The notes under the pieces are model-generated. The model searched no databases. It was not told where the DNA came from and was given only the letters and a program-made list of their open reading frames with translations. Shown in pieces: positions 30,449 to 31,315 of a stretch of 64,000 nucleotides of DNA (positions are counted from its first letter, which is position 1; every line of letters begins with the position of its first letter). The stretch is from a virus. Lineage: Duplodnaviria > Caudoviricetes. The position numbers and the translations under genes were made by a program. The DNA lies in IMG/VR virus record IMGVR_UViG_3300023263_000001, positions 7,896-71,895 of that record; one strand, written 5' to 3'.

Positions 30449-30477
30449 TTGACATCGCGCCCGCGGCATGGAATGTT
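30449..30477 (+). promoter_or_regulatory. Promoter for the RNA cluster
   Basis: TTGACA-17-AATGTT with TG extension. Confidence 0.5.
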
Positions 30478-30478
30478 C

Positions 30479-30547
30479 CGGGCTGAAGCTGGCTAATCGC
30501 CATCGGTATGAAAAAGCCCGACGTCAGGGCCACGATAGTGTCCACCA
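30479..30547 (+). ncRNA. CCA-ended structured RNA A (paralog of RNA C)
   Basis: CGGGCT/AGCCCG stem, linker ACGTCA, GGGC..GATA..GTCC hairpin plus ACCA, then ATTT. Confidence 0.55.
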
Positions 30548-30550
30548 ATT

Positions 30551-30565
30551 TTGTTCTTTGAAAAC
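30551..30565 (+). promoter_or_regulatory. boxA-like antitermination element
   Basis: TTGTTCTTTGAAAAC resembles rRNA-operon boxA; lies immediately before the tRNA. Confidence 0.4.
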
Positions 30566-30637
30566 TGCGGGGAAGTGTGACGGCGCACGCCATCCTCATA
30601 AGTTGGAAGACCGGTTCGACTCCGGCGACCGCAACCA
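30566..30637 (+). tRNA. tRNA with CAT anticodon (Met or Ile2), with stem mismatches
   Basis: GTGT/GCAC D stem, CCATC-CTCATAA-GTTGG anticodon arm, CCGG-TTCGACT-CCGG T arm, encoded ACCA. Confidence 0.75.
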
Positions 30638-30646
30638 ATCCTCAAG

Positions 30647-30720
30647 CGGGTGACTACAGCGAAATGCCTTGGGTCGTCCACCGGTAGAAGCCCGGCGTCA
30701 AGGGCACGATACGTCCACCA
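30647..30720 (+). ncRNA. CCA-ended structured RNA C (paralog of RNA A)
   Basis: CGGGT/GCCCG and CTAC/GTAG stems, linker GCGTCAA, GGGC-ACGATAC-GTCC plus ACCA, then ATTT. Confidence 0.55.
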
Positions 30721-30729
30721 ATTTCCTAT

Positions 30730-31105
30730 CCGGAACCGGGCTTTCTAAGCCCCATGCCTCCGGAGGTGGAAAAACCAAACAGTAGTCGAGACGGGGTTTC
30801 GCGAAGTCGCGGACGTCCCGCGCCCGAAAGGACGCATGGCCCCGCACCAGCTCGGCTCTTTTGTGCGGGAGCAAGGAAGCTCCCTCTACTTTTCGGCAAC
30901 CCGCCAGCCTCAGGTGTGGCGAACCGACGCAGACGGCTCCTGCGTAGTGAGAGCCGTGCAAAATTTCGGCGCCCGCCGCCACCAATGGCCGAACGCTCCC
31001 CAAGGGAGGACACGGCAAGCGGGGTGAACGCTGGCCAGCGCTGACGGCATGGTCTGACGCCGCGACCCGCGAAACCTGCGATAGTGTGTCTTAAAAACCC
31101 CGCTT
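30730..31105 (+). ncRNA. Large multi-hairpin/pseudoknot RNA domain
   Basis: CGGGGTT/GGCCCCG, GGGAGC/GCTCCC, CGCCA/TGGCG, ACGCAG/CTGCGT whose loop ACGGCTC is complementary to GAGCCGT, AAGCGGGGT/ACCCCGCTT; no credible ORF. Confidence 0.55.
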
Positions 31106-31111
31106 ACTTTT

Positions 31112-31195
31112 GGACGCTGAATTTCGGCTTGGAAATGTGGGTCGCACCCATGAGCCAGCCGCGAGAGTTCTGCCTGACGGCAGACGCGCCCGCCA
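31112..31195 (+). ncRNA. tRNA-like RNA ending GCCA
   Basis: GGACGC/GCGCCC acceptor-like stem, ATTTC/GAAAT, GTGGGT/ACCCAT and TCTGC/GCAGA arms, followed by ATTT. Confidence 0.5.
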
Positions 31196-31201
31196 ATTTA
31201 T

Positions 31202-31308
31202 GGAGTGGCTGAACCCCGCGAGGGCGGGGCTGCTTGCAACAGGTCGGAGCACGTAGCTAAGAATTCACGTGGAGCCGATGTGGGTCGTGTCCACCGGTCG
31301 CTTCGCCA
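31202..31308 (+). ncRNA. Atypical 10/4 cloverleaf tRNA-like RNA with long extra arm, ending GCCA
   Basis: GGAGTGGCTG/CGGTCGCTTC 10-bp stem; CCCCGC-GAGG-GCGGGG; CTG-CTTGCAA-CAG; GTCGG/CCGAT plus CACGT/ACGTG; GTGG-GTCGTGT-CCAC. Confidence 0.6.
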
Positions 31309-31315
31309 ATTTACG

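Follow-up and report, generated by a model that had tools for sequence, protein, structure and literature searches.

The transfer RNA (tRNA) gene islands of phages are usually read as aids to codon usage and, more recently, as replacements for tRNAs destroyed by defence systems. In the tRNA cluster of phage T4, two stable RNAs of unknown function, RNAs C and D (also termed species 1 and 2), are cotranscribed with the tRNAs and cut by tRNA-processing enzymes. RNase P cleaves before G1 of tRNA-like helices, and an acceptor helix of a few base pairs (bp) that includes G3:U70 suffices for alanyl-tRNA synthetase (AlaRS). RNA minihelices have been charged with alanine (Francklyn and Schimmel 1989, as listed in PMC9976931); RNase E is described as able to cut tRNA precursors directly at the CCA, giving mature ends (PMC5291269); and boxA is the known remedy in ribosomal RNA (rRNA) operons for the exposure of long untranslated transcripts to Rho (PMC4807359, PMC10250234). 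Here we describe an array of small RNA units at positions 30449–31312 of a 64,000-nucleotide (nt) stretch of phage DNA, ‘the window’. The source is a complete 71.9-kb IMG/VR virus record with terminal repeats (IMGVR_UViG_3300023263_000001), from a soil phage, and the window covers most of it. All features described lie on the + strand unless stated otherwise. An earlier annotation of the window, here called ‘the original prediction’, had proposed an array of atypical CCA-ended RNAs around one tRNA. We establish the anatomy, conservation, covariation, phage restriction and modularity of this array, and we consider it probable that the region is a non-coding RNA operon derived from a phage tRNA-gene island and including mimics of the tRNA acceptor end. 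The mimics, termed microhelix RNAs, appear to be undescribed phage RNAs that imitate only the amino-acid-accepting tip of alanine tRNA.

The microhelix RNA family

The window contains two microhelix RNAs. Copy 1 (61 nt; 30487–30547; 58.4 bits, E 3e-13 with covariance model R1) begins near the predicted transcription start, and copy 2 (52 nt; 51.6 bits, E 2e-11) lies at 30669–30720. Copy 1 comprises hairpin 1 (30490–30502), hairpin 2 (30503–30521), a CG linker (30522–30523), hairpin 3, with the stem GGGC(C)/GUCC (30527–30543), and a terminal ACCA (30544–30547); in copy 2, the same parts occupy 30669–30679, 30681–30695, 30696–30697, 30702–30716 and 30717–30720. The two copies have repeats of 24 and 12 nt in common, and one pair in hairpin 2 is C:G in the first and U:A in the second, both sides having changed and the pairing having been kept. 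The family as a whole follows the same plan: a variable hairpin 1; hairpin 2, of 4–5 bp with a U...AA-rich loop; the invariant CG; 3–4 nt; then GGGC(C), a loop containing CGAUA, (G)GUCC and ACCA, usually followed by AUUU. Its assignment to the + strand follows from the G.U pairs and from an orientation that is fixed with respect to tRNAs.

Nine related phage loci were retrieved with the 186-amino-acid protein encoded just downstream of the array, and further loci came from motif scans; the loci are labelled L002–L063. The pattern GGGCNNCGATANNGTCCACCAA matches 39 IMG/VR contigs of 4.6–205 kb. Model R1, built from 33 sequences and quickly calibrated, so that its E-values are rough, finds 45 matches of 42–68 bits in 468 kb of phage loci, exactly two of them in the window; since the IMG/VR matches include near-identical contigs, these correspond to some 30 independent sequence variants rather than 45. 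The window copies score on a par with members from unrelated phages. The pairs of hairpin 2 are seen as CG, UA, GC, UG and AU in the model-fitted alignment, their covariation score was reached by none of 500 shuffles, and sliding the partner columns collapses the pairing. A model-fitted alignment leans toward the modelled structure; the variety of stems is plain already in the raw sequences.

Hairpin 3 presents the end of an alanine acceptor stem. G1:C72 occurs in 37 of 38 distinct sequences (one non-paired cell) and G2:C71 in 37 of 37 (alignments A3 and A4). G3:U70, the pair by which AlaRS identifies its tRNA, is retained in 35 of 37 distinct sequences, with G3:C70 in the other two, while the adjacent pair 4:69 alternates between C:G and U:A. 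T70-C71-C72 and ACCA form invariant columns, so that A73 and the 3′ CCA are in place, and both window copies have G3:U70. Across the family, then, G3:U70, A73 and the CGAUA loop persist, and covariation is seen at other positions.

In tRNA arrays or beside them, the element has the same strand as the tRNAs; some of these arrays also encode a phage transfer-messenger RNA (tmRNA) or the large RNA GOLLD. In six lineages (L052, L048, L047, L030, L013/L054 and L044), the gene directly 5′ of the element is a tRNA-Ala or resembles one. The tRNA-Ala(UGC) genes in these phages start GGGCU and finish GGUCCACCA, and hairpin 3 is therefore the end of that acceptor stem, capped with a loop. The loop may be a variant of the T loop, given that full-length tRNA-like genes in L007 and L044 have CGAUA within their T loop, CGCGAUA.

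Two side observations concern relatives of the element. In L013 (3373–3450) and L054, a tRNA-Ala(UGC)-like gene that ARAGORN does not call has G3:U70, a CUUGCAA loop and an aberrant D arm; the microhelix element follows immediately 3′. A longer conserved RNA (~130 nt), starting GGACGYAAGGCARCCCGCGACGG, occurs in L013 (3810–3960), L017 (1440–1569), L045 (1100–1223) and L027 (6187–6330, – strand), and its 3′ part is a variant of the element. The weak variant matches in L013 and L017, read by eye, have G3:C70, and their discriminator is not A73.

The same pattern, GGGCNNCGATANNGTCCACCAA, has 19 matches in 596 Gb of genomes from bacteria and archaea, where ~17 are expected by chance. Eighteen have flanks like ordinary coding DNA and one is 3′ of a tRNA-Gly; they score 8–34 bits, and none of the 19 shows the hairpin 2 of the family or the AUUU tail. 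With cellular matches at chance level and devoid of the family context, the family is, as far as these genomes tell, specific to phages. An origin in the host, or a role as attachment (att) site, was considered and rejected: besides the chance level of the cellular matches, identity to tRNA-Ala extends over only 9 + 5 nt, too little for an att core. A blastn search of cultured phage genomes returned only chance fragments, and carries little weight because the query is too short for blastn. No natural phage alanine microhelix is described in the literature searched or in Rfam 15.

Architecture and exchange of the modules

The array begins with a promoter at 30449–30477 (TTGACA, a 17-nt spacer and AATGTT) that falls below the threshold of a simple promoter scan and so is not listed by it, but that is kept in relatives: TTGACA-N17-GAWATSTT heads the homologous arrays of L003, L006, L007 and L017. 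Beyond the first microhelix RNA, TGTTCTTTGAAAA at 30552–30564 matches exactly the consensus of boxA, the rrn-type antitermination signal, and is the sole exact match in the window. Its position, downstream of a promoter and within a predicted untranslated transcript, is that of an rrn-type boxA. One exact boxA per locus, in or beside the RNA array, is found also in L003, L004, L006, L017, L024/L028/L040, L045, L055 and L063, a recurrence that spans at least 10 loci from related and unrelated phages; in the window, L024/L040 and L039, it is immediately 3′ of the microhelix element. No open reading frame (ORF) of the ~860-nt region has a Pfam domain, and the conserved blocks diverge by paired substitutions in stems, that is, without a coding signal. 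On all three points, promoter, boxA and the lack of a credible ORF, the original prediction was right.

It had also placed unit ends at seven RCCA sites, each of which is present: ACCA ends at 30547, 30637, 30720, 30849 and 30984, and GCCA ends at 31195 and 31308. The four CCA-ATTT junctions that it reported are there too, with ATTT starting at 30548, 30721, 31196 and 31309, as is a recurring hairpin, ATGTGGGTCG, at 31135 and 31278 with a variant at 30670. CCAATTT shows no overall enrichment in the window (9 observed, 7.75 expected); four of the nine occurrences lie on the + strand inside 770 nt, where ~0.05 would be expected (Poisson P ~3e-7). That stem-rich units end in RCCA holds for part of the array: several units do end in NCCA followed by AUUU, whereas two of the RCCAs, among them 30849, sit inside folded domains. 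The borders between units are A/U-rich, single-stranded stretches, often of the form NCCA-AUUU-(N)GG. Rfam 15 has no match in the region at gathering thresholds and nothing relevant at E up to 10, so that no Rfam family matches any unit, and comparison across related phages finds at least two modules, the microhelix and the X motif described below, to be conserved with covariation.

The unit at 30566–30637 had been singled out as the one recognizable tRNA. It is indeed the only one that can be called, by ARAGORN under relaxed settings (-ps, 95% of threshold), but at the default threshold ARAGORN finds no tRNA anywhere in the window, and the Rfam tRNA model (RF00005) is silent both in the region (E up to 10) and genome-wide (E up to 1). 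The unit is 84% identical to the tRNA-Met of Roseobacter phage DSS3P8 and alignable with the tRNA-Met genes of relatives, with which it shares an initiator-type acceptor strand, GCGGGG, and a CUCAUAA loop; its own 5′ acceptor strand, UGCGGGG, is kept. It has several defects: position 8 is A rather than U, the acceptor stem is mismatched twice at its base, the variable loop is of 3 nt, the anticodon stem contains U.U and the T stem contains A.C. Bacterial initiator tRNA-fMet is marked by an acceptor GCGGGG/CCCCGC with 1:72 weak or mismatched, and by three G:C pairs in the anticodon stem; that GGG/CCC run is missing here. We regard it as a homologue of initiator-type tRNA-Met(CAU) that is probably a decayed gene and unlikely to be functional.

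Between the second microhelix RNA and the next conserved module lies a spacer (30725–30781) that is rich in hairpins when folded and has no blastn match in any fetched locus. The module that follows, the ‘X motif’ (30785–30856), is a 72-nt three-way junction recognized by its conservation and compensatory stems. Its elements are P1 (GUCGAG/CUCGGC), P2 (CGGGGUU/GGCCCCG), P3 (GCG/CGC), the variable hairpin P3a and CC-GAAA-GG. It matches eight viral and 11 metagenome contigs and is near-invariant in ten distinct sequences, P3a excepted, where four different stems occur, all fully paired: CGCGG/CCGCG, UGCAG/CUGCA, GGAGG/CCUCC and GGGAG/CUCCC. P1 tolerates only changes that preserve a G.U pair, and the G.U pairs fit only the + strand. 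The CACCA at 30845–30849 lies in the internal loop between P1 and P2; because the motif is closed, the RCCA at 30849 is not a 3′ end.

Downstream, at 30867–30894, a sequence scan finds a GC hairpin with a U-rich tail, resembling a terminator, and equivalent hairpins with different stems stand 3′ of the X motif in L003, L006 and L017 also. At 30929–30956 is a candidate H-type pseudoknot, GCAG..CUGC interleaved with CGGCUC..GAGCCG; these 28 nt are near-identical in L007, L016/L017 and L055, with no covariation to read. A linker (30957–31012) contains CGCCGCCACCA, with its ACCA end at 30984, and a hairpin, CUCCC-CAA-GGGAG; it is partly matched in L003, L006 and L007, and its CACC is paired in the single-sequence fold. 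The domain at 31017–31106 is bounded by AAGCGGGG and CCCCGCUU and followed by ACUUUU. Its eight distinct sequences are of two inner types, and the 8-bp closing helix is invariant; the interior shows little covariation (RNAalifold, four sequences) and is weakly supported.

Two units with G73-CCA ends complete the array. The first (31113–31195) can be aligned, at its two ends, with the final L007 unit and appears, from the alignment and the folds, to be a rearranged homologue of the tRNA-Trp-like gene there; only five of its seven acceptor positions pair, and where the T arm should be it has a hairpin with a tetraloop. The L007 gene (3925–3996), unannotated, non-canonical and not called by ARAGORN, forms a cloverleaf with a 7-bp acceptor, a 3-bp D stem with a 4-nt loop, a CUCCAAA anticodon loop, the T loop CGCGAUA and G73-CCA. 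The tRNA-Ala-like gene of L044 has the same T loop. The second unit (31202–31308) is cloverleaf-like in a single-sequence fold (z = –1.8), with a 10-bp acceptor, a 4-bp T stem, a tRNA-Sec-like D arm with a 6-bp stem and a GAGG loop, a long extra arm, a 3-bp stem that bears the loop CUUGCAA, and G73. It has no homologue in the fetched loci, and an IMG/VR probe gave one chance match in coding DNA.

The array's neighbours upstream are a block of small genes, whose products include one that is deoxyribosyltransferase-like and a small one with weak similarity to a tail-fibre family; downstream is an operon that starts with the 186-amino-acid protein (31316–31876; no family) and continues with a sugar epimerase. 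Within the deoxyribosyltransferase-like ORF, at 29966–30001, an extra CCAATTT stands directly 5′ of a promoter-like TTGACT-17-GAAAAT, the only site that the promoter scan reported across 29800–31900. The ATG of the 186-amino-acid gene is 4 nt past the last CCA-AUUU, with no Shine–Dalgarno sequence and no terminator between. Array and gene abut in the same way in L003, L006 and L007, which suggests, along with the arrangement at 31309–31318, that the mRNA is leaderless or has a processed 5′ end.

In L003, L004, L006 and L007, too, the same pair of flanking genes brackets a non-coding array, which is ~0.5 kb long in L004 and L007 and ~1.1 kb long in L003 and L006. When the window array is compared by blastn with all fetched loci, 30510–30551 matches 14 loci, 30785–30856 matches 17 and 30860–31112 matches 5–10; 30725–30778 and 31130–31312 match none. 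The pseudoknot module precedes the AAGCGGGG domain in the window and in L007; in L017 and L055, the order of the two is reversed. Some units occur in relatives but not in the window, among them a true tRNA-Met (L017, 50.6 bits) and a tRNA-Arg(UCU) (L013), together with tRNA-Ala-like and tRNA-Trp-like genes overlooked by ARAGORN. The region is, then, a non-coding RNA operon of modular build: relatives have this promoter and boxA at the same genome position, with the modules reshuffled. The pattern fits an island of exchangeable RNA cassettes. A further stretch of interest, in L024 (9050–10290, – strand) and L040 (2110–3340), is ~1.25 kb without annotation between a boxA-bearing microhelix element and a tRNA-Met/tmRNA pair, with nothing at Rfam gathering thresholds; the phage is 73 kb in size and has 18 tRNA genes in the fetched stretch.

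Probable processing, possible readers and alternatives

If the region is, as we favour, an RNA operon descended from a tRNA-gene island, its workings may be outlined as follows. The sigma-70-type promoter would drive one long untranslated transcript, which the rrn-type boxA would guard from termination by Rho, and which would bear separate, independently exchangeable small RNAs. The A/U-rich NCCA-AUUU-(N)GG borders, taken with the habits of RNase E and RNase P, point to processing of the tRNA type, in which host RNase E, RNase P and 3′ exonucleases would excise the units as they do from tRNA precursors. The microhelix RNAs so released would display the first 4–5 pairs of the phage tRNA-Ala (G1:C72, G2:C71, G3:U70, C4:G69), A73 and CCA, and would be unable to decode because they have no anticodon arm. 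They would act as non-decoding mimics of the acceptor end, whether as carriers of alanine or as decoys or competitors. The persistence of G3:U70 beside a covarying pair, and the retention of A73, argue for a reader of alanine identity; most likely this is AlaRS, the simplest choice, or another enzyme that inspects tRNA 3′ ends. For the phage, such an RNA might be of use as a decoy or competitor at the acceptor end, as a donor of alanine or as a signal for processing. The original prediction had envisaged decoys of anticodon nucleases, an idea that fails because the well-supported units have no anticodon arm.

A bolder version, which we hold only tentatively and think rather improbable, is that the microhelix RNAs are natural, gene-encoded minimal substrates of AlaRS, the smallest natural RNAs to carry an amino acid, and that phages use them, charged or uncharged, to occupy enzymes of the tRNA 3′ end. 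Possible targets would then be toxins of defence systems that modify or cleave the acceptor stem or the CCA end, or alanyl-tRNA-dependent transferases.

Several observations weigh against the reading that we favour. A helix of 4–5 bp is a poor substrate for RNase P and EF-Tu, and G3:U70 could descend from an ancestral tRNA-Ala and be maintained for some reader that is not AlaRS. When the ORFs neighbouring the element in 45 loci were clustered, the only group to emerge was the window's own phage family, with no shared partner gene. The last two CCA units and the spacer at 30725–30781 are without comparative support, and the tRNA-Met unit and 31113–31195 look degraded next to their counterparts in relatives. 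Single-sequence folds, finally, are no better than shuffled controls (z –1.9 to +0.9), although z-scores near zero mean that thermodynamic folding neither supports nor refutes the units.

Such signs of degradation are what one would expect of a decaying tRNA island, in which the units are relics of dispensable phage tRNA genes whose likeness to tRNA ends reflects ancestry without present function. The tRNA-Met unit, with at least five structure-breaking changes and no call by default ARAGORN or Rfam, fits this account, as does 31113–31195, a rearranged form of the better-formed gene in L007, and 31202–31308, which has no homologue. Relics do not, however, explain why both microhelix copies score like members from unrelated phages, why G3:U70, A73 and the CGAUA loop are held while other family positions covary, why the X motif is near-invariant save for compensatory stem swaps, or why promoter and boxA are intact, and for the array as a whole we find decay unlikely.

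We give about the same low credence to a mainly cis-acting role, as the leader of the late operon, in which boxA provides processive antitermination and the tRNA-like ends are punctuation for RNase P and RNase E that makes a short or leaderless mRNA 5′ end at 31316. The way that the array runs into the downstream gene, here and in L003, L006 and L007, with no terminator before an ATG that follows CCA-AUUU by 4 nt and has no Shine–Dalgarno sequence, speaks for it. But the microhelix element occurs inside pure tRNA arrays of unrelated phages, away from gene starts; punctuation leaves the invariant G3:U70 and the conserved 5′ hairpins unexplained; and the window has two copies of the element in addition to several other conserved modules. 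The roles are not exclusive, and the abutment leaves room for an RNA operon that may additionally serve as the processed leader of the late operon.

The original prediction had offered, as another option, one large ornate RNA. A GOLLD- or ROOL-type RNA with tRNA-like elements at its flanks would suit the helix density of the central ~375 nt, and both DSS3P8 and L039 do have GOLLD next to tRNA-Met and tmRNA. The supported helices are all local, though, and neither GOLLD, ROOL nor another Rfam family matches at E up to 10 in a search that finds GOLLD in L002 and L039. Above all, modules are shared piecemeal, being present, absent or reordered among relatives in arrays that range from ~0.5 to ~1.1 kb, which counts decisively against a single RNA and makes this option very improbable. 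That the units are pieces of a divergent two-piece (permuted) phage tmRNA is hardly credible, even though the GUCCACCA ends resemble tmRNA 3′ ends, the X motif looks, locally, like the 5′ part of a tmRNA, and phage tmRNAs occur in arrays that also carry the element, for ARAGORN reports no tmRNA even at relaxed thresholds, no Rfam tmRNA family matches, no tag-like reading frame was found, the X motif closes on itself via P1, and phages with a normal tmRNA carry the element too.

Comparison with known systems

The array resembles GOLLD in being structured non-coding RNA within a phage tRNA/tmRNA island, and differs from it in having no match to the model and in being modular rather than one RNA. 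How readily such islands escape annotation can be seen in Roseobacter phage DSS3P8 (L002; KT870145.1, 1701–4750), where GenBank annotates three tRNAs in a 4.3-kb ‘empty’ region, and where ARAGORN and Rfam find, in addition, two tRNA-Glu genes, GOLLD (3735–4168; 150.7 bits) and a permuted alpha-type tmRNA (4339–4725). With the tRNA-like domain of tmRNA, the microhelix has in common the G3:U70 alanine identity and a UCCACCA 3′ end, and phage tmRNAs are found in the same arrays elsewhere; the microhelix has no 7-bp acceptor stem, canonical T arm, tag frame or pseudoknot ring.

Allo-tRNAs and (8/4) tRNAs, from soil bacteria and phages, have a 12-bp acceptor branch in the 8/4 or 9/3 form, a long V arm, a long D stem with a tetraloop, and G73 or U73 (PMC5389517). 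The unit at 31202–31308, judged from a single sequence, is like them in its long acceptor stem, 4-bp T stem, tetraloop-capped 6-bp D stem, long extra arm and G73. It was nevertheless rejected as an allo-tRNA: its branch is of 10 + 4 = 14 bp instead of 12, and its anticodon stem has only 3 bp. No homologue of the unit is known. The likeness to rRNA operons (PMC4807359, PMC10250234) lies in the consensus boxA just past the promoter, at the head of a long untranslated transcript; here, in contrast, the boxA is phage-encoded, precedes small RNAs rather than rRNA, and is separated from the promoter by a 61-nt RNA gene.

The T4 cluster likewise has small RNAs beside phage tRNAs. Unlike that cluster, the present array has no working tRNA, possesses a boxA and has its modules shuffled among relatives. 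It is an island without a working tRNA, yet with an intact promoter, a boxA and several conserved RNAs that are unnamed in databases. For the annotation of phage genomes, in which such regions now stay blank, the family supplies a defined set of new RNA motifs.

The closest parallel to the microhelix RNAs is synthetic. Minihelix-Ala and microhelix-Ala (Francklyn and Schimmel 1989; Shi et al. 1990; both as listed in PMC9976931) have the same G1:C72, G2:C71 and G3:U70 pairs, A73 and single-stranded CCA, and no anticodon. The phage RNAs differ in being natural, conserved genes, with two 5′ hairpins, an invariant CG linker and a CGAUA loop. In dozens of unrelated phages, they retain the marks that AlaRS reads and nothing for decoding. 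Should they prove to be charged or bound in cells, they would be a natural equivalent of the synthetic microhelices with which tRNA identity has been defined since 1989, and would point to a phage strategy directed at the acceptor end of tRNA instead of the anticodon.

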